Source of the DNA: an uncultured Acidobacteriota bacterium | GTDB lineage: Bacteria; Acidobacteriota; Terriglobia; UBA7540 | Direction of reading: 5' to 3' | DNA length: 64,000 bases | Assembly (NCBI GenBank): GCA_963719115.1 | Contig: CAVRBF010000028.1 | Span: 5,633 to 69,632, forward strand | Part shown: positions 15,997 through 44,223 of the stretch, one piece after another | Numbering within the stretch: the first letter of the stretch is position 1 | Layout: every line of letters starts with the position of its first letter | The notes under the pieces: generated by a model | What the model saw: the letters and a program-made list of their open reading frames with translations, nothing else | What the model was told of the DNA's origin: nothing | Databases searched by the model: none | Made by a program: the position numbers and the translations under genes

Positions 15997-18711
15997 TTAC
16001 CGCGGCAACTTTGCTGCGTCGCCGGTGATTTTGAGCTGAGTCTGCACGCCTGCCGTCGTCTCGGCGGGTTGGGCGCCGCCCACGAACACCGCGTATTCGC
16101 CCGGCGCGATGAGGTGTTCGCCCTGCTCGTTGACCATGCTCAAATCACGGGGCGCGAGCGAGTAGCTCAAATGGCGTGTTTCTCCCGGCGCCAAATGGAC
16201 GCGAGTGAATCCTCGCAAGGCCAACAGCGGCGCACCGGCCACGGCCGGGAACTTGAGGTACAACTCCGCCACTTCGTCACCGGCGATTTTCGAAGTATTG
16301 CGGACGTCAACCTGTACGGTAAGGGGCGCGCCGGCCTTAACAGACGCGGACGAGAGCTTCAGGTTGCTGTACGCAAACGTCGAGTAGCTCAAACCATAGC
16401 CAAAACCGTAGAGCGGCTTGCCGTCAAAATACCGGTACGTGCGGTGCGCCATGGAGTAGTCCTGGAAGGGAGGCAGTTGGTCGAGGGAAGCGTAAAACGT
16501 GACCGGCAGGCGCCCGCCGGGATTATTGAGTCCTGCCAGCGTCTCGGCCAGCGCCGTGCCGCCCGCTTCGCCGGAGTACCACGCCTCCAACACCGCCGCG
16601 GCGTGTTCCTGCGCCCAATTCACGGCCACGGCGCTGCCGCTCATCACGACGACCACGAGCGGCTTGCCCGTCGCCGCCAGCGCTTCCAGCAATTGTTGCT
16701 GCGCCGCAGGCAGGCCAATGTCCGTGCGGTCGCCGCCGTCGAATCCGGGCACCTCGATGGGCATCTCTTCGCCCTCGAGGTTCGGCGAAAGCCCCACGAC
16801 GGCCACGACGGCATCAGCTTGCTGCGCCACTTGCACGGCTTCGTTGCGCAGCACGTCCAGCGGCGGCCGCCAGTTCAGCGTAATTCCCGCCGCATAGTGC
16901 GGAGAATCGTGCGTGTATTCGAGGCGAAAATCGTGGGGGCGTGTGTCGTCAAAGTGAGCCGAAAAAGTTGTCGTGGGATTCTTCATTCCGTGCCAGCCAG
17001 TGGCAGTGGCCAGCACTGGCTTGCCGTCCAAATAGACCTGTACGGTTTCCCGGTCATCGCAGGGCCAACAACCCGGTGTGTGGAAACCGAAAGTGTAATC
17101 GCCGGGCCCCGGCGGCGTTAGTGTGCCGGTCCAACGGACGCCGAAGGTTTTCTTGGAGACTCCCACGGCGGGCGATGCCGCGTCCCAATCAAATTGAATC
17201 TGCGAATCCACGCGCGTTACCACGGGCTTACCGGAAAGGTTGGTATTTGAGAAATACTCACCTTTCAAGCCGGAGCTGGCGCTTCCCCCCGCTTGATGAA
17301 AGACGGTGTAGGGCACGGGCGCCGGCAACTGCTCAACGAACGACGAACCTTGGGCATACAGCACGTTGGCCTTGCCGGCGAAGATTTTGCGGATGCCATC
17401 CAGGGGATAGACCGGGTAGGACGGAGTGCCGTTGTAATTTCCCTCCAGCGCCAGCAATGACTCCGCGTTGGGGCCAATCACTGCAAGTGTTTTCACCGTG
17501 GGCTTCAGAGGGAGGACGCCATTATTTTTCAACAACACAATCGACTCGCGAGCTGCGCGCAGAGCCAGTTGTCGGTGCGCGGCGGAGTCGTCTTCCGCAT
17601 AGGGAATCTGGTTAAAGGCCACGGCCGCGGGCGGATCGAACATCCCCATTCGGAACCGCGCCGTGAAGAGGCGCTTCACCGCCGTGTCAATCGCGCTCTC
17701 CTGGATCAAGCCATCGCGCACGGCCTGCGGAAGTGCTATATACTCCTCCCCACAAGTGGTATCCGTCCCAGCCTGGACCGCGACGGCCGAGGCGTGCTCA
17801 TTGTCGGGAGTGAATTTGTGGCCGGCAGTGATGTCGCCCACGGCGCCGCAATCGGAGGTTACGTAGCCGTGGAACTTCCAGTCGTCGCGCAGCGTCTGCT
17901 GGAGAAGAAACTTGCTGGCACACGCCGGCGCGCCGTCCACGGCGTTGTAAGCGCACATCACGGAATCCGCGTGGCCTTCCACCACCGTGGCGCGGAAGGC
18001 GGGAAGGTAGGTATCTTCCAGGTCGTGAGGCGATGCGTCAACGTTGAAGCCGTGCCGCATTTTCTCCGGACCGCTGTGCACCGCGTAGTGCTTGGGCGTG
18101 GCGATGGCCTTGAAGTATTTGGGGTCGTTGCCCTGCACTCCCGTCACAAAGGCCACACCCAGCTTGGCCGTGAGGAAGGGATCTTCGCCCAGGGTTTCCT
18201 GGCCGCGGCCCCAGCGCGGATCGCGGAAGATGTTGATGTTGGGCGACCAGAAATCCAGACCGAAGTAAATGCTGTGGTTTCCCTCGCGCTGCGCCTGGTT
18301 GTACTTGGCCCGAGCCTCGGTGGCAATGGTTTCACCCTCGAGATGAATCAGGCTGGAATCCCAGGTGGCCGCCATGCCGATCGCCTGCGGGAAAACCGTG
18401 GCGAAGCCGGAACGCGCCACGCCGTGCAAAGCCTCGCTCCACCAGTCGTAGGAGGGAACTCCGAGGCGTGGGATGGCCGGCGCCGTGTGCTGCATTTGCC
18501 GGACCTTCTCCTCCAGAGTCATGCGGGAGACGAGATCGTCCACGCGTTTCTCGATCGGAAGGGAAGTGTCCAAATAAGCAGGAGAGGGCGCCGCGGGCTT
18601 GTTTTGGGCAACGGCGGGCAACCCGAGCCCCAAAGTGACGATAATGGCTAACAGCACTCGCACGGCATATGAGTCCTGTGGTTGATGGCGGATGTCGTTC
18701 ATGGGATTCAC
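15997..18711 (-). CDS. Glycoside hydrolase family 3 (beta-glucosidase/xylosidase-like) with inserted PA14 domain
   Basis: Signal peptide, GH3 motifs (FPQAIGMAATWD, KHYAVHSGPE, GYVTSDCGAV) and a PA14-like insert (GLKGEYFSNTNLSGKPVVTRVDSQIQFDW). 904 aa. Confidence 0.9.
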   Translation of the reverse strand: MNPMNDIRHQPQDSYAVRVLLAIIVTLGLGLPAVAQNKPAAPSPAYLDTSLPIEKRVDDLVSRMTLEEKVRQMQHTAPAIPRLGVPSYDWWSEALHGVARSGFATVFPQAIGMAATWDSSLIHLEGETIATEARAKYNQAQREGNHSIYFGLDFWSPNINIFRDPRWGRGQETLGEDPFLTAKLGVAFVTGVQGNDPKYFKAIATPKHYAVHSGPEKMRHGFNVDASPHDLEDTYLPAFRATVVEGHADSVMCAYNAVDGAPACASKFLLQQTLRDDWKFHGYVTSDCGAVGDITAGHKFTPDNEHASAVAVQAGTDTTCGEEYIALPQAVRDGLIQESAIDTAVKRLFTARFRMGMFDPPAAVAFNQIPYAEDDSAAHRQLALRAARESIVLLKNNGVLPLKPTVKTLAVIGPNAESLLALEGNYNGTPSYPVYPLDGIRKIFAGKANVLYAQGSSFVEQLPAPVPYTVFHQAGGSASSGLKGEYFSNTNLSGKPVVTRVDSQIQFDWDAASPAVGVSKKTFGVRWTGTLTPPGPGDYTFGFHTPGCWPCDDRETVQVYLDGKPVLATATGWHGMKNPTTTFSAHFDDTRPHDFRLEYTHDSPHYAAGITLNWRPPLDVLRNEAVQVAQQADAVVAVVGLSPNLEGEEMPIEVPGFDGGDRTDIGLPAAQQQLLEALAATGKPLVVVVMSGSAVAVNWAQEHAAAVLEAWYSGEAGGTALAETLAGLNNPGGRLPVTFYASLDQLPPFQDYSMAHRTYRYFDGKPLYGFGYGLSYSTFAYSNLKLSSASVKAGAPLTVQVDVRNTSKIAGDEVAELYLKFPAVAGAPLLALRGFTRVHLAPGETRHLSYSLAPRDLSMVNEQGEHLIAPGEYAVFVGGAQPAETTAGVQTQLKITGDAAKLPR

Positions 18712-18902
18712 TCCTTCAGAAAGTTGCCGTCATAGTGGCCGAATTAACCGCGACGCGTCAACCGGAAAAGACGCCGGCATTTCAGGCGAAAACAGCATCG
18801 CGCTGGACGAACGTTCCGAGAGCATGATAGAAGTTACGCCGAGTGCGCGGCGGCGAAAGCACCCGCTTGATTCTTTCATACACCTCGGATAGGGAGACGC
18901 AG

Positions 18903-21131
18903 ATGGATTGCGCTGATAAAGCGAATAAGTCGCGAATACGTTCGTTGAACGTACTCGCTCGGTACCGGGCACGGTTTCTCACCTGTCTGGTTGTCCTATT
19001 CGGTTTCATGTTGCCGCAGCCCGCGCTCACCGCTGACCGCATCGAAGTTAAAACGCTCTCGTCGCGGCCTGACATGGTGAGCGGAGGAGGCGTGCTGGTG
19101 CAAGTCACCGGTCCGGCCGAACTGCTCGCGAAAAAGCTCTCCGTCGTGATTAACGGCCGCGACGTGACCAGCGCTTTCCGTGTCAGCCCCCTCACCCAGA
19201 CACTGGTTGGCCGTGTTGAAGGGCTGGAGCTGGGGAAAAACACCTTGGAGGTCAAAACCGGTCGCAAGGTTCGGGCGCGGCTGGAAATCGTCAATCATCC
19301 CATCACCGGGCCGATGTTTTCCGGTCCCCACCAGACTCCCTTCATCTGCCAGACGGAGTCGATGGGATTGGGCCCGGCGCTCGACGCTGATTGCAGCGCG
19401 AAGACGCAAGTAACCTATGTTTATAAGTCCACCCAACCGGCGTCTCCGGCGGACCGTGCGGCGAAGCGCAACCCCGATGATCCTCCCCGCGGATTCAAGC
19501 GCTACGACCCGTCCGGCCCGGCTCCTGACGACGTCGCGGAAGTGACCACCACTCAAGGAAAGAAGGTCAAGTACATCGTGCGCCGGGAGGTGGGTACCAT
19601 CAATCGCGCCATTTATGAAATCGCCTTCCTGCACGAGCCCGGAACGCCACTGCCCGACCCTTGGACGGACACTCCGGGCTGGAATCGCCGCCTGGTTTAC
19701 AGCTTCGGAGGCGGCTGCAATGCGGGCTACCGGCAGGGGCGTCCACCGGAAGCTGTGGACGGGATGTTCCTTTCGCAGGGCTACGCGCACGCCACGTCGT
19801 CGCTTAACGTCTTTGGCAATAATTGCGATCAGGTTATCTCGGCAGAAACGCTGGCGATGGTGAAGGAGCATTTCATCAAGCGATTTGGCGTGCCGGTGCA
19901 CACCATCGGCTGGGGCGGTTCGGGCGGATCGATGCAACAGCACCTCATCGGCCAAAACTATCCCGGCCTGCTGGACGGCATTATCCCCAGCATGAGCTAC
20001 CCTGACATCATCACGGTGGTGCCGGGCGTCGTGGATTGCACGCTGATGGCGCACGCCCTCGACAACGTGACCCAGCCCTGGACAGAGGAGCAGAAAACGG
20101 CAGCGTCGGGTTTTTCAACCTGGCAGGCCTGCTCGAAGGATTCGCGCGGCAATTCGTGGATCAAGACGCATTTTTCTCCGGACCTCAACCGGCCCATGAC
20201 GTGCGATTCGAGTATTTCCCACTCATTGGTGTACGATCCCGTGTCGAACCCGAAGGGCGCGCGCTGCGACGTTTATGACAATGAAGCCAACGTTTTCGGA
20301 CGCGACCCCAAGACGGGATTTGCCCGTCGCCCACTGGACAACATCGGGGTTCAATATGGGCTGGTGGCCTTCAATAGCGGAACCATCACGGCGGAGCAAT
20401 TCGTGGAGTTGAATGAGAAGATGGGTGGCTACGATGACGACGGAAAGATTGTGGCCGCGCGCATGACCGGCGATCCAGAAGCGCTCCGCGTGGCTTACCA
20501 GACGGGCCAAGTGGATCAGGGAGCGGCTGGATTGGCCTCCATCCCGATCATCGATATCCGCGCCTATGTGGATAACGTCCCGGATATTCACGACGAATAT
20601 CGGTCGTTTGTCACCCGTGCCCGGCTCGAAGCCGCGAACGGCAGCGCCGACAATCAGGTGATTCTTACGTTTCCCTTCGTTCTTCGTCCTGGCCAAAATC
20701 TGCGCACCACATTCGCGGACGAGTTGAAGACCCTTGTGCCCTCGATGGATCGATGGCTCGACAACATTGCCAAAGACCGCTCTTCGCGCAGCGCGCTGGA
20801 GAAGATTGTTGCCGCCAAGCCCGAGAGCGTTGCGGATGGTTGCTGGTCTGACGATGGTGAGCGGATTGTTGAGGCGCGAACTTACAACGGCCCCGGCCGG
20901 TGCAACCAATTGTTTCCGCCGCACGGTGATCCGCGAATCGCCGCCGGGCAGCCACTCACGGAAGACATCCTGAAGTGTGCGTTGAAGCCCGTGGAGGCCA
21001 AGGATTATGTGCACCCGTTGACGGAAGACCTACTGGCGCGTTTAAAGGTGATCTTCCCGCACGGCGTGTGCGATTATACCCGTCCGGGGATTGGCCAGTC
21101 GCCGCCGGAGGGAAGTTGGCACAAGTACTGA
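18903..21131 (+). CDS. Exported hypothetical protein, alpha/beta-hydrolase-like (tannase/feruloyl-esterase- or DUF6351-like)
   Basis: AGGGAG RBS 6 nt before the ATG at 18903 and a hydrophobic leader FLTCLVVLFGFMLPQPALTA. It has a GWGGSGGSMQQH nucleophile-elbow-like motif. The family assignment is from memory only. Confidence 0.45.
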   Translation: MDCADKANKSRIRSLNVLARYRARFLTCLVVLFGFMLPQPALTADRIEVKTLSSRPDMVSGGGVLVQVTGPAELLAKKLSVVINGRDVTSAFRVSPLTQTLVGRVEGLELGKNTLEVKTGRKVRARLEIVNHPITGPMFSGPHQTPFICQTESMGLGPALDADCSAKTQVTYVYKSTQPASPADRAAKRNPDDPPRGFKRYDPSGPAPDDVAEVTTTQGKKVKYIVRREVGTINRAIYEIAFLHEPGTPLPDPWTDTPGWNRRLVYSFGGGCNAGYRQGRPPEAVDGMFLSQGYAHATSSLNVFGNNCDQVISAETLAMVKEHFIKRFGVPVHTIGWGGSGGSMQQHLIGQNYPGLLDGIIPSMSYPDIITVVPGVVDCTLMAHALDNVTQPWTEEQKTAASGFSTWQACSKDSRGNSWIKTHFSPDLNRPMTCDSSISHSLVYDPVSNPKGARCDVYDNEANVFGRDPKTGFARRPLDNIGVQYGLVAFNSGTITAEQFVELNEKMGGYDDDGKIVAARMTGDPEALRVAYQTGQVDQGAAGLASIPIIDIRAYVDNVPDIHDEYRSFVTRARLEAANGSADNQVILTFPFVLRPGQNLRTTFADELKTLVPSMDRWLDNIAKDRSSRSALEKIVAAKPESVADGCWSDDGERIVEARTYNGPGRCNQLFPPHGDPRIAAGQPLTEDILKCALKPVEAKDYVHPLTEDLLARLKVIFPHGVCDYTRPGIGQSPPEGSWHKY

Positions 21132-21193
21132 GGCCGGCGTCGTTGTGTCGGGTAACGCAGGGCGGCCCAAGAAATACTCAGAGGAGAAAACTC

Positions 21194-22315
21194 GTGAAAC
21201 ATGCCCGTCAGATCGGAACGGCGTGGTTGGTGCCCGCGATGAGCGCCCTTGTACTCTTCGCGTTGCTGATTTTGACGTGGCGGCGTGAAGCACGCTGCGA
21301 GCCCGCCCCGCCTAATGACTTTGCCGGATTTTCTGCTCTTAGCCCGATCGATGCTCACGCCCATCTGTTCGCCAATAATGCCGCCGCTGTGGCCCTGCTG
21401 AAAAGACTGAACGTTCACATTCTTAACATCTGTGTGGTAGTTCAGCATGGCCGTGGCTACGATGAGGCCGCGCCGCTCAACCGGACGGCGCGCGAATACC
21501 GGCATAATTCCGAAGGTCACGAGGCGTGGTGCTCCACCTTCGACCCGCAGGATTTCGAAAAGCCCGGATTCGCGGACCACTCGATCCAGATTCTCAATGA
21601 AACCTTTGCCCAGGGCGCCGTCGCGGTCAAGATCTGGAAGGCGATCGGCATGGATTTGAAAAAACGCGATGGATCCTACCTGATGGCCGACGATCCGGTG
21701 TTCGCCCCGATTTATGCGGATATCGCCGCGCACCACCACACGCTGATTGCGCACCTTGCCGAGCCCACCTCGTGCTGGAACCCGCCCAATCCGAACAGCC
21801 CGGACTACAGCTACTATCAGCAGCATCCGGAGTGGTACATGTTCCGGCACCCGGATCATCCTTCGAAGCAGACCATCCTCGCGGCGCGTGACCGCCTGCT
21901 TGCGAATAATCCCACGCTGCGAGTGGTGGGCTGCCACTTGGGAAGCATGGAACTGGACGTCGATCAGATCGCGCGGCACTTTGACCGCTACCCGAATTTT
22001 GCCGTCGATACCGCGGCGCGCGTCCAGTACCTCATGATGCAATCTCCCGAGAAGGTGCGGGCGTTCCTCACCAAGTACCAGGACCGCGTACTTTACGGGA
22101 CAGACAACGGTTTGGAGCCCGGCAACGATCCGGCCAGTACGTTGCCACGGTGGGAAGACCGCTATCTTCGCGACTGGCGATACTTCGCGACCGACGAATG
22201 GGTGGAGTATCACGGCAAGAAATACCGCGGCCTGGCGTTGCCTCAGCCTATTTTGCGCAAGCTTTATCACGATAATGCGGTGCGGTGGGTGCCGGGAATC
22301 CTGCCAGCGCAGTGA
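21194..22315 (+). CDS. Amidohydrolase_2-family metal-dependent hydrolase (membrane-anchored or exported)
   Basis: GAGGAG RBS (21181-21186) followed by GTG at 21194. It has an N-terminal hydrophobic helix and IDAHAHLF (an HxH metal motif). The ORF's upstream extension overlaps the preceding gene. Confidence 0.65.
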   Translation: MKHARQIGTAWLVPAMSALVLFALLILTWRREARCEPAPPNDFAGFSALSPIDAHAHLFANNAAAVALLKRLNVHILNICVVVQHGRGYDEAAPLNRTAREYRHNSEGHEAWCSTFDPQDFEKPGFADHSIQILNETFAQGAVAVKIWKAIGMDLKKRDGSYLMADDPVFAPIYADIAAHHHTLIAHLAEPTSCWNPPNPNSPDYSYYQQHPEWYMFRHPDHPSKQTILAARDRLLANNPTLRVVGCHLGSMELDVDQIARHFDRYPNFAVDTAARVQYLMMQSPEKVRAFLTKYQDRVLYGTDNGLEPGNDPASTLPRWEDRYLRDWRYFATDEWVEYHGKKYRGLALPQPILRKLYHDNAVRWVPGILPAQ

Positions 22316-22324
22316 AACGGAGCA

Positions 22325-24514
22325 TTGAAAATGAAACTGATCAGAACATTTCTGCTTGTGGTTCTTGTTCTCGCGCTGGCTGTGCCGCTCGGCGCGCAGT
22401 CCGCGAACAAGCTGGATTTTCTCACCGACCTTCACGACTACGCCCGCCTGCCCAGCATGTTGAAGGATTATTTGAATGCGCAGGCGTTTGCCCAACTGGA
22501 GTTGCGCCGCCAGCAGGTGGCCCGCATTTCGAACCCCGACGAAGTGGCCATGCGCCGCGCGTACTTGCGTGAGGCGATGGTGCGCGATCTCGGCGGATTT
22601 CCGGTGCGAACGCCGCTGAATGCGCGCGTCGTCGGCACGCTGGATCGCGACGGGTACAAAATCGAAAAGGTCATTTTCGAAAGCCAGCCGCATTTTTATG
22701 TCACGGGCAATCTCTATTTGCCGAAGGTCGGTTCTCCTCCGTATCCCGGCGTGCTTTTCCCGCTGGGACATGAATTGGGGGGCAAGTCAAATGGCGATTG
22801 GCAGCAGACGCTGGCCAACTTTGCGCGACGCGGATACGTCTGCTTCGCGTGGGACCCCATCGGCCAGGGCGAACGCGTGCAGCTTTACGATCCCGATCTC
22901 GAGCAAAGCAAGATTCCCGCGTCCACCGACGAGCACACGGACATCGGTCTCCAATGCCTGCTGATTGGCGACAACATTGCGCGCTACACCATCTGGGACG
23001 GCATGCGCGCGCTGGATTATCTGCTCTCGCGGCCGGAGGTTGACTCGACGCGCATCGCGTGCACGGGAAATTCCGGAGGCGGAACGCACACGGCCTATCT
23101 TTCCGCGCTCGACGACCGCATCAAGGTGGCCATGCCCTCGTGCTACATCACTTCCTGGCGGTGGCTGCTGGAAACCATCGGTCCCCAGGACGCCGAACAG
23201 TGCATTCCCCCGTGGATCAGCCAGGGATTTGACCATGGGGATTTCGTGCTGGCGTTCTCGCCCAAGCCTTATCTGATTCTCTCGGCGATCCGCGATTTCT
23301 TCTCCATCAATGGCGCGCGCGAGACATATCACGAGGAGCAGCACGTTTACGCGGTCATGGGCGCGCCTGACAAGTTGAGTCAATTCGAGGCTGACAACGG
23401 ACATGGATACTTGCAGCCGCGCCGCGTGGCGGCCTACCAGTGGCTCAGTCGCTGGTTTAAGGGGCAGGAGGACAACACGCCGGAAGTGCCCGTCCAGCCC
23501 GTGTCCGAGGAAGGACTGCGATGCACCGCCTCGGGGCAAGTGTTGGTGTCGCTGGGTGGCGAGACGGTCTTTTCCCTGAACCAGAAAAGGTACGAGGGCG
23601 TCAAGCCACAGCGGCCCTCGCTGTCCGACCCACAGGCCGTCGCCGCATTTCAGCGCAAGATCTCCGGTGCGGTTCGCCGCCGGGCCGAGCAGATTACCAC
23701 GCCCCTCGCTGAGCCCAAGCCTTTCGGCGTGATCCAGAAGGAAGGCTACCGAATTGAGAAACTGACCTACGAGAGCGAGCCTGGCATCATTATTCCCAGC
23801 CTGCTCTTTGTTCCCTCCAACATTGAGAGCCGTGCGCCTGCGGTCATCTACGTGAACTCGATCGGCAAGTCGGCCGGGGCGGGAGAAATCGAATCCCTGG
23901 TGAAAGGCGGTTTTGTGGTCCTTGCCATTGACGCGCGCGGATGGGGAGAAACCGCCGCGAATTCTAGCGAGGACGCAAGATCGTTCAACGAGCTGTTCCC
24001 GAACTACAACTTGGCGATGACCGCCATGCTGCTGGGCAAGTCGCTGGTGGCGATGCGCGCCGAAGACATTAGGCGCGGGATTGATCTCCTTGCCCGCCGG
24101 CCGGAAGTGGACGGCGAGAAAATATATGGCATGGGAGTGGACTTGGCCACGGTACCTCTTCTGCACGCGGCCGTACTCGATGCGCGGCTGAAAAAGGTCA
24201 TTCTGGAAGGCGGCTTGGCTTCCTATGACATGATCGAGACCTCTAAAATCCAACATGGCATTGTGGAAAGCGTCATTCCCGGCGTGTTGAAAGACTACGA
24301 TCTGCCGGATCTGGTGGCCGCACTGGCTCCGCGCCCGACGTGGATCGTCGATGCTCGTGACCCGCTGGGATATCGCGCGGGAATCGTCAAGGTGCGGGGG
24401 CAATATGCCGCTGCGGCAGACGCTTTCAACGCCTTGGCTGCAAAGGACGCACTCCACATTGAAGTAACCGAACCAAAAGAGGAATTCGACATTACGTATC
24501 GAGGCTTGAAATGA
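22325..24514 (+). CDS. Two-module alpha/beta-hydrolase (acetyl-xylan-esterase/Abhydrolase_7-like), paralogue 1
   Basis: Sec signal MKMKLIRTFLLVVLVLALAVPLGAQS. Module 1 carries CTGNSGGG (GxSxG). Module 2 repeats the fold (GYRIEKLTYESEPG..., VVLAIDARGWGET) but has GMGVD at the elbow. Confidence 0.7.
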   Translation: MKMKLIRTFLLVVLVLALAVPLGAQSANKLDFLTDLHDYARLPSMLKDYLNAQAFAQLELRRQQVARISNPDEVAMRRAYLREAMVRDLGGFPVRTPLNARVVGTLDRDGYKIEKVIFESQPHFYVTGNLYLPKVGSPPYPGVLFPLGHELGGKSNGDWQQTLANFARRGYVCFAWDPIGQGERVQLYDPDLEQSKIPASTDEHTDIGLQCLLIGDNIARYTIWDGMRALDYLLSRPEVDSTRIACTGNSGGGTHTAYLSALDDRIKVAMPSCYITSWRWLLETIGPQDAEQCIPPWISQGFDHGDFVLAFSPKPYLILSAIRDFFSINGARETYHEEQHVYAVMGAPDKLSQFEADNGHGYLQPRRVAAYQWLSRWFKGQEDNTPEVPVQPVSEEGLRCTASGQVLVSLGGETVFSLNQKRYEGVKPQRPSLSDPQAVAAFQRKISGAVRRRAEQITTPLAEPKPFGVIQKEGYRIEKLTYESEPGIIIPSLLFVPSNIESRAPAVIYVNSIGKSAGAGEIESLVKGGFVVLAIDARGWGETAANSSEDARSFNELFPNYNLAMTAMLLGKSLVAMRAEDIRRGIDLLARRPEVDGEKIYGMGVDLATVPLLHAAVLDARLKKVILEGGLASYDMIETSKIQHGIVESVIPGVLKDYDLPDLVAALAPRPTWIVDARDPLGYRAGIVKVRGQYAAAADAFNALAAKDALHIEVTEPKEEFDITYRGLK

Positions 24515-24557
24515 AGCGTTGCTTTTGCCGCAATTGAAAACTTACCGGGAGGGTACC

Positions 24558-26657
24558 ATGCCACGTCAACGCAAGGCCTGGGGAATGGTGTTGATCGCCA
24601 TCGGTGCTTTCATCGCGCTTGCCTTGAGTGCAGGCATGCTCCCGTTGGCCTCGCCGCCGCCCGCTCAATCCGACAGACCTCGCCCATCGTGGCTGCACAC
24701 CATGCCGATTGTGACGGTGTCGAACCACGATAGCATGCCCATCTTTCGCCGGCGCGTGGGCGGAAACCCCACCTGGCAGGAAGAGGACTACGAAAAGGAG
24801 CACACGCCTGAGGCCATCGACAAGCTCAAGGAACTCGGCGTGACCGTGGTCATCATCCACTTCTACAAGGGATTCGGACTGGAGGCGGAAAAGGAGCACC
24901 GCGAAAAAGGCATGAAACTCGCCGCGCTGGTGAAGAGCAAGGGTTTAAAGGTGGGCGTTTATGTGGGCAGCACCATCGCCTATGAAACCTTTTTGCTCGA
25001 GAAGCCAGAGGCGGAGGACTGGTTTGTCCCCGATTTTATGGGCCGGCCCGTTATCTACGATAGTCAAACGTTTCGCAAGCGCGTCTACTTCATGCACCCC
25101 GGTTACCGCGAGTACATGCGCCGCGTGTTGAAAACGGCGGAAGACGACTACCACGCGGACCTGATTCACTTTGACAACACCAGCATGCAGGCGCAGCCGC
25201 CGATTTTCCAGCACCCGCTGGCCGTCGAGCAGTTTCGCGACTTCCTGCGCGAAAAGTATTCCCCCGAGGAATTGAAGCAGCGACTGGGATTCTCCGACGT
25301 ACGTTACGTGCTGCCGCCGCGTTACGACAGGCCGCTGGGTGCGATTGACGATCCGCTGTTTCAGGAGTGGGCGGACTTTCGCTGCACCATGCTGACGCGC
25401 TATTACACGGAGATGGAGGCCCTCCTGCGCCAGCAGAATCCTGACGTAGCGGTGGAGACCAACCCACACATGGGAATTTCCGGCCGCAACACCATCTGGG
25501 ACGAAGGCGTGGACTATCCCCGCCTGCTCTCACATCTGGATGCAGTGTGGACGGAAGAGGGCGATCCCGCGGGCGTCACCGACCAGGGCATCATGGTCAA
25601 TCGCATTCGCACCTTCAAGATGACCAACACGCTGCACAACACGCTGTTCGTCGCTTCCGGCGGATCGGACGGCAACACTTTGCAGATGGCCGAGGCGCTG
25701 GCGTTCGGCCGCCAGTGCATAGGCGACGTAGGCGGAGTGCTGGCCGGCTACGACCTGCCGCAGGACCAGCGCCGCTACTTGAAGTTCTTTCACGGCAATT
25801 TCGATTACTATCGTGACATCGACAACATTGCAGACGTCGCCGTGCTTCACTCTTATGCCACCATGGGCTTCAACAACGATCGCCCGGCCGTCAGCACCAT
25901 GCTCTTTGAGCAGTCGCTGATACAAGGCAAAGTGCCTTTTGACATCATCTTCGACGACAATCTCAAGGACCTTTCCAAGTATCATGTGTTAGCCCTGACC
26001 GATCAGGAATGCCTGAGCGACGAGCAGATGGACCTGGTCCGGCAATTTGTGCGCGGTGGCGGCGGGCTGGTGGTGAGTGAACACACGTCGTTGTACACGC
26101 CCTGGAGGCAGCGAAGGCGCAACTTTGGGCTCAAAGATTTGATTGGCTTGGACGCTCCGCCCTGGCGCGGCAGCTATGAGCCCGAGCCGATTTTGAAAAC
26201 CAGCACCCACAACAGGTTCGGAAGCGGCCGGGTGGTGTACATTCCGGAAGTGAAGGCGGTCATTGCCAAGCCTCACGGCGAGCCCATGACTAGCGAGTAC
26301 TGGAAGCTTCCCGCCAATTGGAAGGAACTGAATGATTCGGTAAAGTGGGCAGCGGGTGGGCAGCTTTCCATGGAGGTCACCGCTCCCACCACCGTGGCGG
26401 CGGAGCTTGTTGAACAGCGACAAGGCAAGCGCCTGATGGTCCACCTGGTGAACTACAATGTTGCCAAAGTCCCGGCGGTGACGGGCATTCAGGTCAGCCT
26501 GCAATTGGCGCCTAAGCAAAAAGTGCGCAAGGCGTTTCTGCTCTCACCGGAACAAGAAGGCACGCGGTCGCTGATGGTGACGGAACAGAACGGCCGCGCC
26601 TTGATCACTGTACCGGAGCTGCGAACCTATGCGCTGGCGGTGGTGCAGACGGAATAA
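24558..26657 (+). CDS. Membrane-anchored GH42-like / TIM-barrel glycoside-hydrolase-like protein
   Basis: GGGAGGG RBS followed by ATG at 24558, then an N-terminal TM helix (WGMVLIAIGAFIALALSAGML). The layout looks GH42-like, with a barrel followed by a C-terminal region, but this is a fold-level guess. Confidence 0.45.
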   Translation: MPRQRKAWGMVLIAIGAFIALALSAGMLPLASPPPAQSDRPRPSWLHTMPIVTVSNHDSMPIFRRRVGGNPTWQEEDYEKEHTPEAIDKLKELGVTVVIIHFYKGFGLEAEKEHREKGMKLAALVKSKGLKVGVYVGSTIAYETFLLEKPEAEDWFVPDFMGRPVIYDSQTFRKRVYFMHPGYREYMRRVLKTAEDDYHADLIHFDNTSMQAQPPIFQHPLAVEQFRDFLREKYSPEELKQRLGFSDVRYVLPPRYDRPLGAIDDPLFQEWADFRCTMLTRYYTEMEALLRQQNPDVAVETNPHMGISGRNTIWDEGVDYPRLLSHLDAVWTEEGDPAGVTDQGIMVNRIRTFKMTNTLHNTLFVASGGSDGNTLQMAEALAFGRQCIGDVGGVLAGYDLPQDQRRYLKFFHGNFDYYRDIDNIADVAVLHSYATMGFNNDRPAVSTMLFEQSLIQGKVPFDIIFDDNLKDLSKYHVLALTDQECLSDEQMDLVRQFVRGGGGLVVSEHTSLYTPWRQRRRNFGLKDLIGLDAPPWRGSYEPEPILKTSTHNRFGSGRVVYIPEVKAVIAKPHGEPMTSEYWKLPANWKELNDSVKWAAGGQLSMEVTAPTTVAAELVEQRQGKRLMVHLVNYNVAKVPAVTGIQVSLQLAPKQKVRKAFLLSPEQEGTRSLMVTEQNGRALITVPELRTYALAVVQTE

Positions 26658-26678
26658 ATTCCCGTGGCGAGGAGTACG

Positions 26679-28892
26679 ATGATCCGACGACAATTCCTGC
26701 AATGGGCCGGCGCTTTGCCGCTCGCCTCCGCCCTGCGTCTGCCACTGGCGGCGGGGCAGGCGAATGAGTCCAGAGTTCACTCCTATAGCGACGACTATCC
26801 CGACATGCTGGTGACTTACATCGAATCCAAGAGCAACGCGCTGGCGGCGAAGTGGGACAAGGTGCGAAGCGAGATCCACACCGCCGCGGACCTGGAAAAT
26901 CGCAATCGTTTTGTGCGGGAAAAGATTCGCGAGATGCTGTGCGGTTTCCCGGAGCGCAATCCGCTGGGTCCTGTCGTAACCAAGGTGCAGCAACGGCCTG
27001 GTTATCGCGTCGAGAACGTCATGTTCCAGAGCCGCCCGAACTTTTGGGTGACGGCGAACCTTTATGTGCCCACCTCCGGCACCGGACCCTTTCCGGGAAT
27101 CATCTCTCCCTGCGGACACTACGCGCCGGCGCGCACGTATGAGGCCTACCAGTATCTCTACCAGGACCTGGTGAGAAGCGGCTTTGTGGTGCTTGCCTAC
27201 GATCCCATCGGGCAGGGCGAACGGCGGCAGTTCTGGAATCCGCAGACCAATGTCAATGAAATCGGCGGATCGCCCACGTGGGAGCACGACATGCCCGGCC
27301 ACCTGCTCTTTCTGCTGGGCGAGAACCTGACGGAGTATCGGGTTTGGGACGGCATGCGCGCCATCGATTACCTGGAGACGCGCCCGGAGGTGGACGCGGA
27401 GCGCATCGGCTGCACGGGCCACTCCGGCGGCGGCACGCTAACCCTCTACATCTCCTCCATCGATGAACGTGTGCAGTGTGCGGTGATGAACGAGGGCGGG
27501 TCGGGGCGGCGCTGGCCGATGCACCTTGGACCCGGCGACGAGATTGGCACCGGCGACGCGGAGCAGCATTTCTTTCCTGCCGGGATTTACGGCATCGATA
27601 TGTACGACACCCGCATGGCCATTGCTCCACGGCCCGCGCTGTCCACTATCGAGCACTACTCGCCCAATTTCGACACCGAAACCGAGCGCATACGTGCCGG
27701 TTATCGGCTGTTGGGAGCGCCGGAGGCTTTCGACACGCTGGAGGCTCTGGACCCGCACGCCCTGACCCCCAAGCTGCGCCTGCGCACCGTCGATTGGTTC
27801 TGCCGGTGGTTCTATCAGCGGCCCGGCCCAACTACCGAACCAGCGTTTGTCCCGGAACCACCGGAGTCGCTCGACTGCACGCCCAACGGTTCGCTTCGCT
27901 ATTCGCAGCAAGGTGAGACGGTCTTCTCTCTCATCTTGAAGAAGGGGGCTGCGCTGCCGCCATCGGGCAAGGCGCCGAGTTCGCGTGCGGAGGTGGATTC
28001 TTTCCGCCGCGAGATCGAGGGCCAAATCAAGGATTTGCTCCGGTTCCAGCCTTCGGCCTCAGACCTCAGTGTGAGGGTGTTGGAGACCACGCCGCGCCGC
28101 GGTTACCACATCGAGAAGTTGGAATTCCTTTCTGAGCCGGGGATCTATATTCCAACGTGGGTTTTTGTGCCGGACGGGAAGTTCGCACCGGCGCCGGCCA
28201 TTCTCTACGTTGACGAGGCCGGGAAGGAACAGCAGGGCATGGAATTCGGTTTCTTGGAACAGCTTGTCCGCAAAGGGCACTGTGTGGTCGCGGTGGACGT
28301 GCGCGGCGTGGGAAGCACCAAGCCCGCCCATCCCGATATGGACCCGGCCTCGCAATGGACGAATCTGGAAGATGCGCAGACGGCCATGGCGTACTGGCTC
28401 TGGGAAATCAACGAGTCACTTCTCGGGATGCGGGTGCTGGACGTGCTCCGAAGCGTCGATTACGTGCTCAGCCGCCCGGACGTTGACCGCCCGGGCGTGC
28501 ATCTTGTTGGTAGGGGGCAGGGCGCGCTGTGGACGCTCTTCGCGGCGGCGCTGGATTCACGTATATTAGCCACGGTTTGCGATCGCGGTTTGTTGTCTTA
28601 CCGGTCCCTCACGCAAGTCGATCGGTACGTCTACAGCGCCGATGCCTTTATCCCCGACGTGCTGAATCACTTCGACCTGCCGCAGGTGGCGGCTGCCATT
28701 GCACCGCGATCTGTGGCGCTGGTTGCTCCTCTCGATCCCATGAAGAACGCCGTTGATCCGGACTTGGCGCGCTCGGCCTATCAGTGGACGGAAGCTGTCT
28801 ACAAGGCCGTCGCCGCGGCGGGACGTTTTCGCGTCGCAGGCCCATGCGATGAAGGGGACCGGGCAGAGCGCTATCTGGACCTGCTTTCATGA
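26679..28892 (+). CDS. Two-module alpha/beta-hydrolase, paralogue 2 (TAT-exported)
   Basis: MIRRQFLQWAGALPLASA twin-arginine signal. Module 1 has CTGHSGGG. Module 2 has VGRGQGAL at the elbow. It is collinear with the 22325-24514 protein. Confidence 0.7.
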   Translation: MIRRQFLQWAGALPLASALRLPLAAGQANESRVHSYSDDYPDMLVTYIESKSNALAAKWDKVRSEIHTAADLENRNRFVREKIREMLCGFPERNPLGPVVTKVQQRPGYRVENVMFQSRPNFWVTANLYVPTSGTGPFPGIISPCGHYAPARTYEAYQYLYQDLVRSGFVVLAYDPIGQGERRQFWNPQTNVNEIGGSPTWEHDMPGHLLFLLGENLTEYRVWDGMRAIDYLETRPEVDAERIGCTGHSGGGTLTLYISSIDERVQCAVMNEGGSGRRWPMHLGPGDEIGTGDAEQHFFPAGIYGIDMYDTRMAIAPRPALSTIEHYSPNFDTETERIRAGYRLLGAPEAFDTLEALDPHALTPKLRLRTVDWFCRWFYQRPGPTTEPAFVPEPPESLDCTPNGSLRYSQQGETVFSLILKKGAALPPSGKAPSSRAEVDSFRREIEGQIKDLLRFQPSASDLSVRVLETTPRRGYHIEKLEFLSEPGIYIPTWVFVPDGKFAPAPAILYVDEAGKEQQGMEFGFLEQLVRKGHCVVAVDVRGVGSTKPAHPDMDPASQWTNLEDAQTAMAYWLWEINESLLGMRVLDVLRSVDYVLSRPDVDRPGVHLVGRGQGALWTLFAAALDSRILATVCDRGLLSYRSLTQVDRYVYSADAFIPDVLNHFDLPQVAAAIAPRSVALVAPLDPMKNAVDPDLARSAYQWTEAVYKAVAAAGRFRVAGPCDEGDRAERYLDLLS

Positions 28893-29040
28893 CACTTGAG
28901 GTGGTGGTGTGCTGGTGCTGTGCAATATCGTACACTGCCGAAGTTACTGTTCCGTGAATTCCAGCACCTGGTAACTTAAGTCCGCTCTTGCTTTGTAACA
29001 TGAAATGTCACTCCGTGATCCTGACCCCGCTTTTCAGGGT

Positions 29041-29165
29041 GAAGGACCCCGGTATTTCGTCTTATCCAGGCGCCGCAGCGTGCTGCGGCCGTCTGCTGCC
29101 GCGCCCGGCTTCCTACGTACAATGAAAAGGGTCCTTCGCCCTGAAATGCGGGCTCAGGATGACAG
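29041..29165 (+). repeat. ~130-bp interspersed element, copy B
   Basis: gaaggaccccggtatttcgtcttatcc...cctacgtacaatgaaaagggtccttcgccctgaaatgcgggctcaggatgacag, in the same orientation as copy A. Confidence 0.75.
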
Positions 29166-29274
29166 GGCTTTTGGTTTGTGTGAATAACTGGCGACTGTCG
29201 AGTGCGGCACGGAGGTGGTGACAGCGCTCGGTCACCCGCTCACCCGAGCACCCGATGGCCCGATGACTCGAGTC

Positions 29275-30410
29275 CTACACCTGTTCGAGAATCGCAAAGT
29301 CGCCCGGGTTCCACGCCAGCGCCATGATGTAAAACTTCTCGCCGATTTTCCTGATCGCGGCGTTGTGGATGTGGACGAAATTCGGCAGCCCCAGATCCTC
29401 CTTGATCATGATGGTTGAGACCAGCTTTTCGTTCTCGAGGATGTAGATGGGAGCGCCCTTCTTACTATTGTCCGGGCCTTCCAGCGCCGGGACCACGCTG
29501 TATGCGCTGGTCGAGGTAATTGATGTCGCAGGGCAAGCGAACCCGAAGGCATGGCCAGGCCGGAGAGGTAGTGGCCGTAGCGCGAAAAGCGTTCGAAGCG
29601 CGAATTCGGCCGGTCCGCCACGTCGAGCCGCACCATCCCCGGCGGTTTGGTGATGCCGTGCCCGGTGCGAAACTTGCCGATGGCGTCGCCCTTGCCGCCC
29701 CAGGCCAGATCGTTCCACGCCACCTGGCTGGCGTCGGGCGAAAGGCGGGCTGTGAGCACGTAATCAAGATTGCAATAGCCAGTTGTGACGTAATACAGAC
29801 CTTCCAAATACTCCACCGCCGTGGGCGCAAAATTCCCGCCGCCCAGAAGATAGTCGTGCACCTCGGGCTGTTCAAAGTTGTCGCTGGCGGTGGGAGCGTC
29901 CAGCTTGTTCACCAGCCGCCCATCGAGGGTGGTGGTAAAGATTTTGCCCTCGCCATTGGCGGGAAAGACCAGGAACGGCGTTCCATCCGTGCCGTACCAG
30001 ATGTTGGTGTCGTGCAGGTTGATCTTGCGCATCTCGTCCGGCGTCTCGACCATGCTGATGGTTTTGAAATCCGAGCTGATCTGGACGATGCCCGCGCCGG
30101 GAAGGGCGAAATAGGTTTCGTCGCGTCCGGGGCGGCGGTCAACGGCAAAACCGCCATGCGCATCCTTCAGCACCTTCTGCGCTTCGGGGGGAAGGTGGTC
30201 GGCGGTGTACAGCACTTTGAACTTCAAATCCCCCTGGCCGCTGACGCCGGGAGCGCTTTCCGCCATCGCGCCGGCAGCGTCCAGCGATGCCCGGAACGCA
30301 CGCTTGCTGAATCGCGGCGCGTGATGGTGGGCGTGCAGTGCTGTCATGTTTTGAGTCATGCCTGCCAAACCGACAAGGCCGTACATCATCCGTCTTCGCG
30401 AAAGGCTCAT
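29275..30410 (-). pseudogene. TAT-exported hypothetical protein (possible beta-propeller), frame broken near 29505-29535
   Basis: MSLSRRRMMYGLVGLAGM signal. ORF 29406-30605 loses sense after ...GHYLSGLAMPSGSL, while the C-terminus (TSAYSVVPALEGPDNSKKGAPIYILENEKLVSTIMIKEDLG...FAILEQV) continues in the frame of ORF 29275-29718. Confidence 0.5.
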
Positions 30411-30685
30411 GAGCATTTCTCCCCGAAGGAATTTTGTCGTAACCAGATTGCGGAGGTGCGCCCCAACACTGAAGCGGGAATTCGCAGAAGCAATTTCCAG
30501 CCGACTGGTAACATACCGCGAACGGCTCGAGATCGCAATGGGCAGTTGAATTTGGTGGTCACCCGCGCTAAGGTGTGCGCCTCGGTGCCGGCTTGGGTCA
30601 GTCACGGTGCGCTGGTAGCACTTGCCGCAGCGAGAGAAGCGGTGGGCAAGTTAGAACAACGGATCGGCGAAGAAAGAGGGGAACC

Positions 30686-40253: not shown

Positions 40254-40735
40254 ACGTTGGGGAAAACCGCCAGTCGGGCATCTTGTCCGCTGCCCTCCAT
40301 TTTCCTGAGCGCTTCACGTACCTCGCACCATCACATCCCTTTCCCCTATCATCCCCACGCCGCTGAGGGCTGTAGCGGTTCAGGGATATTTAATATTAGA
40401 TAATTCACGATACATTATGTTATGTCCATGGTTAATGGCATGGGGGCTCTCCGACCAGAAATCCAGTATCTCCTCTCCCGCGTCACCGCGAAATTCCCGT
40501 GGACAAATCAACGGGCATATTAGAGACTCGCGTGTTCTGCTCGCGCCGTTCTCTCCCGACGCCGGTCCCGGAGTGGTCTGCCGGTCTTCACAAGGATCGC
40601 GACTGCGTCGGAGCGGCCGGATCTGGCGATCGGATATTCCCATGCGACTGCAATGCTGGCACGACCGTCCGAATCAGCTCGCCGCAGTCACCCCGCGGTG
40701 GAACCGCCAGCGAAGGAGCAACCTTTGAGCGACCG

Positions 40736-43700: not shown

Positions 43701-44223
43701 GCCGACCGATCTTTACCTCTGGCGTGGCGACATCTTCTCCTACGCGATGAACAACTATTACTTTACCAACTGGCCGGCGGCACAAGGCGGAGACTTCACC
43801 TTTCGCTACGTCGTTACCAGTGGACCCGACATGAGCCCGGATTCCCTGAGCCGGCTGGGGCGCGAGGCAACCACGCCGCTGGAGACCGACGAAGTCACCT
43901 CCCAGGATAAAGCTGTGCCGCGCCCTGAGCCCCTGCCCGCGGATCAGTCGAGCTTTCTTGCCACGGATCGCTCCAACGTCGTCCTGGTTACGTGGAAGCA
44001 AGCCGAGGATGGAGACGGAATGGTTTTGCGTTTTCTGGAAATTGCCGGAGAAGAGGGCGCGGTGAAGGTGCGCATTCCCTTGCTCAACGTTGAGGCCGCG
44101 TGGAAATGCAACGCCATGGAGCAAAAGATCAGCGCGCTTTCTGTGTCGCCGCACGGATTTAGTTTTAGCGTGAAGCCGTTCCAGATTGTTACCGTGCGGG
44201 TGAAAGGAATGCCAGCCCTGTGA
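40736..44223 (+). CDS. Glycoside hydrolase family 38 (alpha-mannosidase-like) with an N-terminal extension of about 250 aa
   Basis: GH38 start motif VPHEHLDVGYSD (HxHxDxG(W/Y)). The first canonical start in the main frame is the TTG at 40885. However, that frame is open from 40729 and encodes a signal-like FIKIFPCGIFIVIAVSLFSSPAFG. The only ATG (40736) is one frame off, which is consistent with a missing A in the aaaa run at 40747-40750. Confidence 0.75.

Follow-up and report, generated by a model that had tools for sequence, protein, structure and literature searches.

Organization of the locus

The window analyzed here, a 64,000-nt stretch of DNA from an uncultured Acidobacteriota bacterium, carries five intact ORFs on the + strand, g1 to g5. 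They encode a DUF6351 serine hydrolase (g1, 18903..21131), an Amidohydro_2 enzyme (g2, 21194..22315), a two-module esterase (g3, 22325..24514), a GH42-architecture protein (g4, 24558..26657) and a paralogue of g3 (g5, 26679..28892). The successive spacers measure 62, 9, 43 and 21 nts, a purine-rich Shine-Dalgarno-like motif lies upstream of every start codon, and GC3 in the reading frames, taken as a coding signal, is 0.68-0.76. Each of the five proteins has an export-signal-like N-terminus. An earlier note on this DNA had described a five-gene + strand cluster of exported hydrolases without assigned function. Its coordinates, its gaps and its view of the proteins as exported and functionally unassigned were all confirmed, as was its statement that no regulator or transporter gene lies inside the block; the closest outer membrane barrels and a LacI gene are found 12-17 kb away. 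No promoter-like or terminator-like site was found on the + strand inside the block, which is probably transcribed as a single transcript.

The flanking GH3 and LarA-like genes reported by the same note are also present. The first (15997..18711, - strand) is divergent from g1 and encodes an exo-glycosidase with Pfam GH3 N and C domains, a PA14 domain and an Fn3-like domain. Its top NCBIfam model is the Xyl3A beta-xylosidase, with a score of 890 bits, under the 1250-bit cut-off. The 191-nt intergenic region between the GH3 gene and g1 (18712..18902) is the presumed promoter region of the block. Its sequence contains a GGGAGA motif 6 nts upstream of the g1 ATG at 18903, but the placement of a promoter there is presumptive because no sigma-70-like site scored in this interval. 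On the other side, g5 is convergent with c23 (29278..30410, - strand), a gene located by tblastn and encoding a Tat-exported NHL-type beta-propeller with a weak NHL/PAL-like PDB match. In the window, c23 is split over two reading frames, with two tblastn HSPs (30410-29535 and 29502-29278) that lie in different frames because 32 nts separate them. The g5-c23 intergenic region contains a long imperfect hairpin (29015..29163; -91.6 kcal/mol, z = -7.25) with 35-nt arms that are 89% complementary. This hairpin, which occurs once within the window and is not conserved in relatives, forms the 3′ boundary of the block; it could terminate transcription in both directions or represent a small insertion. 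The LarA-like gene lies further downstream (32168-33514, - strand).

Esterases of the block

The 742-aa g1 protein matches PF19878 (DUF6351, tannase-like clan) over its full length (E 4e-249). In an alignment of 16 homologues, the G338-x-S340-G-G motif, H563 and 12 cysteines are invariant. A sequence search for relatives of g1 in the PDB found none.

In each of g3 and g5, Pfam detects two alpha/beta-hydrolase stretches. The Sec-exported g3 and g5, which carries the twin-arginine motif RRQFL of Tat-exported proteins, are paralogues sharing 35% identity. The top PDB match of g3 is BT1017 of Bacteroides thetaiotaomicron (6GOC, E 1e-22), which g5 also matches (E 4e-13). BT1017 is the founding CE19 pectin methylesterase, encoded in the RG-II PUL, and its S282/D352/H388 triad was verified by mutagenesis (PMC7939467). 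The CE19-like N-module of g3 (about aa 100-385) aligns Ser250 (nt 23072-23074), Asp324 and His360 with this triad, and the corresponding serine of g5 is Ser249 (nt 27423-27425). Both N-modules share with BT1017 the alpha/beta-hydrolase fold and the G-x-S-G-G-G elbow, and the serine and histidine are invariant among 34 aligned family members, whereas an Asp is absent from g5-type proteins at the position aligned with the acid of BT1017. In addition, g3 and g5 differ from BT1017 in that they lack its DUF3826 domain and carry a second alpha/beta-hydrolase domain instead, and in that their genomic partner is a GH42-architecture protein, while those of BT1017 are RG-II enzymes.

The C-modules match Abhydrolase_7 and CE7-type esterases (3NUZ, 3G8Y, 6AGQ) over about 250 residues but differ from them at the nucleophile. 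In g3 (about aa 465-729), which retains the alpha/beta-hydrolase fold, the serine is replaced by Asp606; in g5, alignment to the G-F-S-L-G of 3NUZ and the G-G-S-Q-G of 6AGQ places G-R-G-Q-G at the elbow, with Gly613 (nt 28515-28517) at the serine position. All 34 two-module family members aligned have lost the nucleophile: most carry Gly at its position, the others Asp, Ala, Ile or Met. Judged from these alignments, g3 and g5 each contain one BT1017-related esterase module, predicted to be active, and a further alpha/beta-hydrolase domain from which the nucleophile serine has been lost. The esterase content proposed earlier thus amounts to three predicted catalytic modules (g1 and the N-modules of g3 and g5) and not five.

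The GH42-architecture protein g4

The g4 protein, N-terminally anchored or exported, consists of a TIM barrel, a GH42-type trimerization domain and a beta-sandwich. Its Pfam match to Glyco_hydro_42 (PF02449) is marginal, and a weak GH29 match covers residues 120-212. A Foldseek search with the AF2 model, which is of medium confidence (pLDDT 71.6), gave as best match a GH151 structure (6TVK, E 1.7e-23). GH42 beta-galactosidases (Gan42B, 4OIF/5DFA), which share the TIM barrel, the Glyco_hydro_42M domain and the C-terminal beta-sandwich, were matched with E about 1e-20 and a TM of about 0.6. However, the N-E motif that bears the GH42 acid/base after beta4 is N-T in g4, this position being occupied by F, Y, V, L or T across the family and never by Glu (position 208, 0/101 sequences 26-53% identical to g4), and the family has no conserved Glu after beta7, unlike GH42. 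In the same set, D206 is invariant (101/101) and position 333 is acidic in 98 of the 101 sequences (97%). The candidate catalytic residues are therefore Asp206 (nt 25173-25175), at the end of β4, and Glu333 (nt 25554-25556), at the end of β6.

In GH151, the catalytic residues are located at the ends of beta4 and beta6 (PMC10154630). The GH151 alpha-L-fucosidase ALfuk2 (6TVK), also the top profile-sequence match of g4 (E 1.5e-9), has an identical three-domain layout, and its catalytic Asp and Glu lie on the strands bearing D206 and E333, the correspondence being by strand. Sequence similarity to ALfuk2 is restricted to domains 2 and 3, with about 15% identity, and g4 differs from it by an N-terminal anchor and by a helical insertion of roughly 90 residues between beta4 and beta5. 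Because Asp206 and Glu333 match the GH151/GH29 type, the model and the conservation pattern suggest that g4 is a retaining alpha-glycosidase, a putative assignment that extends to its alpha-specificity and to the catalytic roles of both residues.

The Amidohydro_2 enzyme g2

The 373-aa g2 protein matches PF04909 with 43 bits (Pfam cut-off 26.4 bits, E 6e-11), and H55, H57, H187, H248 and D304 are invariant in its family. By these sequence features, it is assigned as a divergent, exported or membrane-anchored, metal-dependent Amidohydro_2 hydrolase. A Foldseek search with its AF2 model (pLDDT 86.8) returned only distant ACMSD-type matches (E about 1e-8, TM about 0.5, 13-15% identity). These enzymes (gamma-resorcylate decarboxylase 2DVT, LigW 4L6D, LigY 5VN5 and LigJ 6DXQ) have the same (beta/alpha)8 amidohydrolase fold and conserved HxH...H...H...D ligand set as g2, but they are cytoplasmic whereas g2 is exported or lipid-anchored. 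Among nine g2-family members located near g4 homologues, six have a clear signal or lipoprotein N-terminus; in the other three it is unclear or absent. The lactonase activity suggested earlier for g2 found no specific mark, the distant fold neighbors being ACMSD-type decarboxylases and hydratases. The other domain labels of the earlier note were reproduced in outline by Pfam, with the qualifications that g1 is full-length DUF6351, that neither g3 nor g5 has a nucleophile in its C-module and that g4, with conserved carboxylates of GH151/GH29 geometry, is GH42-like in architecture only.

Conservation of the block

The gene order GH3 (-), g1-g2-g3-[c12]-g4-g5, c23 (-) is wholly or partly kept in five related Terriglobia genomes (L001, L002, L009, L043 and L082), a single clade in which it could partly reflect shared descent. 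The earlier note had named a gene order conserved in no related genome as grounds for refuting the cluster, and the order is wholly or partly kept in these genomes. An additional gene, c12, lies between g3 and g4 in four of the five and is absent from the window, L002 is devoid of g1 and g2, the GH3 gene is divergently upstream in L002, L009 and L082, and c23 follows g5 in L002, L009 and L043. Nucleotide identity between these relatives and the window is only about 75-79%, and synteny ends on both sides of the GH3...c23 unit while persisting within it.

Of 35 fully flanked loci with a g4 homologue, 17 have a two-module esterase at most 6 kb away from it, among them loci of Bacteroidota (L022) and Kiritimatiellota (L032), and g5-type orthologues adjoin g4 homologues in many loci. 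The g4-g5 pair is the deeper conserved unit, common to Acidobacteriota, Bacteroidota and Kiritimatiellota, and the only part of the block whose linkage extends from one phylum to another. The presence of g1-g2 and of c12 varies between close relatives. Homologues of g2 with 55-59% identity are located in housekeeping contexts that have no relation to glycan use, and a Tunturibacter g1 homologue lies in a different glycan-type setting, adjoining GH38 and an AraC regulator. Hence, the five genes are not all tied to a single pathway.

The block resembles PULs, whether the SusC/D loci of Bacteroidota or the TonB-dependent-barrel loci of acidobacteria, in its co-oriented exported glycosidases and esterases. 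Unlike PULs, it is devoid of its own transporter, binding protein or regulator. Elsewhere, g4 homologues are in PUL-like settings, adjoining genes for sugar catabolism and for transporters of the OMP_b-brl_4 or SusC/D-like type, with GH20, GH109/GFO, NagA/B, sulfatases and altronate dehydratase in their loci. These partners vary between loci, pointing to different glycans.

Functional interpretation

On balance, we lean towards g1-g5 being a real, probably single-transcript cluster of exported enzymes in a soil acidobacterium of the Terriglobia, which together with the GH3-PA14 enzyme would form a periplasmic or cell-surface glycan-trimming locus, its target most likely being a decorated polysaccharide. 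The g1 enzyme and the CE19-like N-modules of g3 and g5 would act as three serine esterases removing ester substituents that block glycosidases, and the nucleophile-less C-modules may serve for binding or as scaffolds. With Asp206 serving as nucleophile and Glu333 as acid/base, g4 would follow a GH151/GH29-type retaining mechanism on a GH42 architecture and take off a terminal sugar in alpha linkage. The GH3 enzyme would take off beta-linked xylose or glucose, and g2 would be a metal-dependent accessory hydrolase. De-esterification would presumably precede trimming.

That the block is a CAZyme island without a common substrate, in which independent exported hydrolases are co-oriented and packed by chance and synteny reflects common descent, not joint function, is a serious but unlikely alternative. 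The separate lives of g1 and g2 homologues, the fluid content (absence of g1-g2 from L002 and of c12 from the window) and the lack of a regulator or transporter all fit such an island. However, gaps of 9-62 nts with Shine-Dalgarno-like motifs and no internal terminator-like sites argue against it, as do synteny that breaks outside GH3...c23 and holds inside at about 75% nucleotide identity, and g4-g5 adjacency repeated in three phyla.

Other alternatives concern the substrate. If the locus removes side chains from hemicellulose or lignin-carbohydrate complexes, the GH3 enzyme would be a beta-xylosidase, g3 and g5 would hydrolyze acetyl or 4-O-methyl-glucuronoyl esters, g1 would be an esterase of the feruloyl/tannase type, g2 would act on the released phenolic acid and g4 would remove an alpha-linked side sugar. 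We regard this as improbable: the Xyl3A model is the top GH3 match but scores under its cut-off; g3 and g5 match AXE1, fungal glucuronoyl esterase and CE15 structures, but the AXE1 and CE15 matches are short and centered on the nucleophile elbow, and the top match is the CE19 enzyme BT1017. Similarly, DUF6351 is filed as tannase-like and the fold neighbors of g2 include aromatic-acid decarboxylases and LigY/LigJ, yet export of g2 would be unusual in aromatic-acid catabolism, no gene for a xylanase or for a GH43, GH67 or GH115 enzyme was seen, and g4 partners elsewhere are GH20, NagA/B and sulfatases. Another possible substrate is a glycan rich in amino sugars, fucosylated or sulfated, either a microbial EPS or a host-like glycan, on which an alpha-L-fucosidase-like g4 would act alongside a CE19-like partner removing O-acyl or methyl groups. 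GH20 and sulfatases, present in several g4 loci, would suit such a glycan. The GH151 fold match and weak GH29 match of g4 favor this substrate, as do a GH29 gene adjoining a DUF6351 gene (L083) and a PUL (L024) with SusC/D-like genes, SASA, GH109, two NagB-like genes and an SDR, enolase-superfamily and Amidohydro_2 set resembling non-phosphorylative deoxy-sugar catabolism. This proposal is equally doubtful, as the catalytic domain of g4 has no significant GH151 sequence match, only domains 2 and 3 aligning, and no sulfatase, GH20 or fucose catabolism gene lies near the block in the window. Degradation of pectin or RG-II, with g3 and g5 as CE19 pectin methylesterases feeding uronate catabolism, is very unlikely. 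Although their top solved relative is an RG-II methylesterase and altronate dehydratase occurs in about six g4 loci, no pectate lyase, GH28, GH105, GH78 or GH106 was seen either within the window or among the recurrent g4 partners, and about half of CE19 (clade CE19_3) is without known or predicted substrate (PMC13450560).

An esterified glycan, as the earlier note had proposed, remains a reasonable substrate class for a glycan-trimming locus, but the dedicated pathway it envisaged is not one indivisible unit. Evolution of this locus would be modular, with g4-g5 an old functional pair in three phyla and g1-g2-g3 (and c12 in relatives) lineage-level additions. The cluster itself is ordinary in kind, but it includes two uncharacterized enzyme families that are found together in three bacterial phyla.

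Organization and boundaries of the block

The block consists of five consecutive plus-strand genes for exported enzymes, g1 (window 18903-21131), g2 (21194-22315), g3 (22325-24514), g4 (24558-26657) and g5 (26679-28892). All five are intact open reading frames, with successive spacers of 62, 9, 43 and 21 nt, in agreement with the same-strand cluster described in the earlier note. Third-position GC in these frames ranges from 0.68 to 0.76, and a purine-rich Shine-Dalgarno-like motif is located upstream of each of the five starts. No plus-strand promoter-like or terminator-like sites were found in the interior of the block. The short gaps, the Shine-Dalgarno-like motifs and the lack of internal terminator-like sites suggest that the five genes are probably co-transcribed.

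Upstream, a GH3+PA14 gene (15997-18711) diverges from g1 across an intergenic region of 191 nt. Rfam and tRNA scans of the whole window returned zero hits, indicating that neither a riboswitch nor a leader RNA is present ahead of g1. Downstream, 385 nt separate g5 from the convergent gene c23, and this spacer contains a 149-nt hairpin (29015-29163) with 35-nt arms that are 89% complementary and a folding energy of -91.6 kcal/mol (z = -7.25). The hairpin occurs as a single copy within the window, is not present at related loci and may act as a terminator in both directions or represent a small insertion. The c23 gene itself (29278-30605, minus strand) encodes a Tat-signal NHL-type beta-propeller, which also adjoins g5 in three related loci (L002, L009 and L043). 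In the window it is broken across two reading frames near 29503-29534, which points either to a pseudogene with a frameshift or to an error in the assembly.

Export-signal-like N-termini are carried by all five block proteins (5/5): a classical signal peptide in g3, the twin-arginine motif RRQFL in g5 and hydrophobic anchors or signal peptides in g1, g2 and g4. Neither an outer-membrane transporter (SusC/D or TonB-dependent barrel) nor a regulator is located within window 15997-30410. The OMP_b-brl_4 genes closest to the block lie at 17-3055 and 45877-48507, and a LacI gene at 44232-45302. An adjacent transporter and regulator, the criterion for a polysaccharide utilisation locus (PUL), are found at many loci of g4 homologues but not at the block.

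One predicted active and one dead module in g3 and g5

The paralogous g3 and g5 (35% identity) are each composed of two alpha/beta-hydrolase parts, an N-module and a C-module. The pectin methylesterase BT1017 (PDB 6GOC), on which CE19 was founded, is the closest relative of both N-modules, with an E-value of 1e-22 for g3 (residues 108-380) and 4e-13 for g5. Ser250, Asp324 and His360 of g3 align with the BT1017 triad S282/D352/H388, which was verified by mutagenesis (PMC7939467). The Ser and His of the N-module are invariant across 34 family members. In the g5-type N-modules, where both are kept, the aligned acid position is occupied by Ser or Asn and a conserved Glu is found three residues upstream. 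For the CE19_3 clade, which makes up about half of CE19, substrates are neither known nor predicted (PMC13450560).

The C-modules of both proteins resemble Abhydrolase_7/CE7-type esterases, with the nucleophile Ser replaced by Asp606 in g3 and by Gly613 in g5, whose elbow G-R-G-Q-G aligns with G-F-S-L-G of 3nuz and G-G-S-Q-G of 6agq. Because Ser occurs at this position in none of the 34 family members (0/34), g3 and g5 each combine one predicted catalytic esterase module with one dead alpha/beta-hydrolase domain. The proposal of two active modules per protein is consequently rejected, and neither g3 nor g5 is a double esterase.

A glycosidase-like fold with a predicted catalytic pair in g4

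The GH42 Pfam match of g4 is marginal, and in a single-sequence PDB search its best relative, the GH151 alpha-L-fucosidase 6TVK, reached an E-value of only 0.016. [quoted passage not shown] This is the three-domain architecture of GH42, and the Foldseek matches cover all three domains. Ranked by Foldseek, 6TVK comes top (E 1.7e-23), followed by GH42, GH96, GH164 and GH167. The trimerisation-type model PF08532 was found in all 13 g4-family members searched (13/13). The family comprises 456 clusters at 50% identity (E <= 1e-30), and a literature search on a trimerisation-domain protein in Acidobacteria found no report.

In an alignment of 101 representatives with 26-53% identity to g4, the candidate catalytic residue Asp206 is conserved in 101/101 and position 333 is Glu or Asp in 98/101 (97%). 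At the site of the GH42 N-E acid/base motif, g4 reads D206-N207-T208, and Glu occurs at position 208 in 0/101 sequences, the residues there being F, Y, V, L or T. An alignment with the GH42 beta-galactosidase Gan42B begins just past the acid/base site, with no Glu available. Since it lacks the acid/base Glu of GH42, g4 is rejected as a beta-galactosidase; the GH42-like character suggested previously therefore holds for the architecture and not for the type of catalyst.

In the model, D206 closes strand β4 (202-206) and E333 comes right after strand β6 (329-332). Strand beta7 (362-364) is followed by A-S-G-G without a conserved carboxylate, in a loop of pLDDT <50. In GH151, the nucleophile Asp ends β4 and the acid/base Glu ends β6 (PMC10154630). 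D206 and E333 agree with this layout when matched by strand position, not by superposition. A profile search of g4 against 6TVK gave no significant match in the catalytic domain, aligning residues 420-522 and 592-696 only (domains 2 and 3), and a weak GH29 Pfam match is seen in 4/13 family members, ending in g4 at residue 212. On the basis of the fold ranking, the missing GH42 Glu, the conserved Asp206 and Glu333, the GH151 layout and the weak GH29 match, we read g4 as a putative retaining glycosidase with a GH29/GH151-type mechanism, predicted to be alpha-specific, on a GH42-like body. It probably belongs to neither GH29 nor GH151.

The putative serine hydrolase g1 and the putative metal hydrolase g2

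The g1 protein matches DUF6351 (PF19878) over profile positions 1-654 of 655, with 829 bits against a cut-off of 22.4 (E 4e-249). This was the only Pfam model found at E <= 0.01, and the tannase/feruloyl esterase model PF07519 was unmatched. A literature search for DUF6351 returned a single, unrelated mention, leaving the family essentially without literature. Across 16 homologues of at least 41% identity, a G-x-S-G-G elbow (Ser340; G-G-S-G-G in g1), His563 and twelve cysteines are invariant, a pattern that fits an exported, disulfide-rich serine hydrolase. In Tunturibacter, a g1 homologue adjoins an AraC regulator and a GH38 gene. PDB sequence searches found no solved relatives of either g1 or g2.

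The match of g2 to Amidohydro_2 (PF04909) scores 43 bits (cut-off 26.4) and aligns profile positions 123-287 only. The metal-ligand set tested for this family, HxH (beta1), His (beta5), His (beta6) and Asp (beta8), is full and invariant (H55-x-H57, H187, H248 and D304), the residues lying at or beside strand ends in the AF2 model (pLDDT 86.8). The Foldseek neighbours of this model are distant (E ~1e-8, TM ~0.5), the leading ones being ACMSD-type decarboxylases, a hydratase and a C-C hydrolase, including LigY and LigJ; Atu3138 ranks no higher than 43. The possibility raised in the earlier note that g2 is a sugar lactonase is rejected, since it lacks specific support and the closest fold relatives are not lactonases. 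Among nine g2-family N-termini inspected, six carry a clear signal or lipoprotein motif, including in Bacteroidota, and three are unclear or have none. The neighbours of g2 homologues at 55-59% identity are housekeeping genes.

Conservation of the block in related genomes

Scanning a single genome from each species yielded 77 loci with g4 homologues (47-84% identity) in Terriglobia, Bryobacterales, Bacteroidota, Kiritimatiellota and others. The fullest order was found in L009, where a minus-strand GH3 gene is followed by g1, g2, g3, c12, g4 and g5 and then by c23 on the minus strand. L043 has g2-g3-c12-g4-g5 followed by c23, L002 has a minus-strand GH3 gene, g3-c12-g4-g5 and c23, and L001 has c12-g4-g5, while L082, a metagenome contig, carries a minus-strand GH3 gene, followed by g1, g2 and a third gene that is cut off. 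The additional gene, c12, encodes a 576-aa signal-peptide protein (e.g., L043:4567-6297) for which no Pfam or NCBIfam match was found. It sits exactly at the g3/g4 junction in 4/4 relatives that reach it (L001, L002, L009 and L043) and is absent from the window, where g3 and g4 are 43 nt apart. The nucleotide identity of the block to relatives of the same order is ~75-79% and synteny is lost outside the GH3 to c23 unit, which is thus under some constraint.

Distant relatives keep only the linkage of g4 with a two-module esterase. This linkage is seen at 35/77 loci overall. When only the loci flanked by 5 kb or more in each direction are counted, it is seen at 17 of 35, two of them being L022 from Bacteroidota and L032 from Kiritimatiellota. 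Hence, of the single dedicated five-gene set proposed earlier, the g4-g5 linkage proves deep and the other genes are lineage-specific additions; the evolutionary unit is g4-g5 plus these additions.

The second commonest partner of g4 homologues is c2, a cluster of Tat-signal proteins of ~430 aa present at 20 loci (L034:18104-19393 and 19 others), for which no family match was found. In Acidobacteriota, Bacteroidota and Kiritimatiellota, c2 genes often form tandem pairs directly after the g4 homologue. An HMM of c2_429, a recurrent beta-propeller-like partner, found zero copies in the window, so that the locus here is without a c2 partner. Exported Amidohydro_2 proteins occur near g4 homologues at 9 loci, together with a second type. 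Further partners are OMP_b-brl_4 or SusC/D-like transporters, two-component regulators, GH20, GH109/GFO oxidoreductases, NagA/NagB, sulfatases and altronate dehydratase.

One of these loci, L024:1077-22048 from a Puia sp. MAG, is a Bacteroidota PUL with a g4 homologue. Its order is SusC/D-like, NagB-like, enolase-superfamily dehydratase, SDR, SASA esterase, g4 homologue, two c2, GH109-like, exported Amidohydro_2, second NagB-like, PfkB kinase, MFS transporter and GFO oxidoreductase. This PUL would be well suited to a search for what the g4 family acts on.

Other genes in the window

Beyond c23, a plus-strand gene (30575-32203) encodes a protein of 542 aa that starts with a Tat-type RRTFLQ signal, has no Pfam or NCBIfam match and is conserved beside c23 in L043 (76% identity). 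It is followed by a LarA-like gene (32168-33514, minus strand), which scores 444.5 bits against a cut-off of 400 with the NCBIfam equivalog 'nickel pincer cofactor-dependent isomerase, group 22'. Searches against NCBIfam were uninformative for g1-g5, c2, c12, c23 and the 30575 protein. A second glycan locus comprises a GH38-like gene with an N-terminal PL4-domain-III/CBM-like module (40729-44223, plus strand), a LacI-family regulator (44232-45302, minus strand) and an OMP_b-brl_4 outer-membrane barrel (45877-48507, plus strand). No Pfam match was found for an 860-aa protein encoded at 57800-60382 (plus strand).

Proposed function and candidate substrates

The block is best explained as an exported glycan-trimming enzyme set working with the divergent GH3. 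The esterases would strip acyl or methyl substituents, after which terminal sugars would be taken off by g4 and the GH3 enzyme. In this scheme, g2 would be an accessory metal hydrolase and the dead alpha/beta domains of g3 and g5 would probably serve in substrate binding or as a scaffold. The earlier interpretation as a whole is partly supported, with the corrections that each two-module hydrolase has a single active module, that g4 is no catalyst of the GH42 type and that a lactonase lacks support.

Several substrates may be considered. Hemicellulose or lignin-carbohydrate side chains are suggested by the resemblance of the GH3 protein to Xyl3A and by AXE1/CE15-like elbow matches; however, the GH3 score falls under the Xyl3A cut-off. 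The resemblance of g4 to GH151 and GH29 and the partner genes at other loci would instead be consistent with fucosylated, sulfated or amino-sugar glycans. Pectin or RG-II is the weakest candidate and was down-weighted because pectinolytic partner genes were not found.

More broadly, we speculate, as a rather unlikely possibility, that the g4 family, with its ~456 clusters at 50% identity from Acidobacteriota, Bacteroidota and Kiritimatiellota, is an undescribed GH family, joining a GH42 body to GH29/GH151-type Asp/Glu catalysis. It would be obligately paired with an esterase of CE19 origin, in which the duplicated dead domain serves as a substrate-binding module, and the two enzymes would make up a conserved unit that first de-esterifies and then cleaves, acting on a glycan decoration.

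As a system, the cluster is an ordinary CAZyme gene cluster and implies no new biology beyond its families. The interesting part is two families, g4 and the CE19-like esterase with a dead domain, both of them widespread and uncharacterised and physically linked to each other. Among degraders of complex carbohydrates, the soil Acidobacteriota are abundant and poorly understood. With Asp206 and Glu333 as predicted catalytic residues, the g4 family is a concrete target for enzyme discovery, and the CE19-like enzyme that recurs beside it, with its fused dead domain, is a second one. Their characterization may add a GH family to those known, give an assignment to the half of CE19 without a known substrate and illustrate how a pseudo-esterase can be taken over as a binding module.
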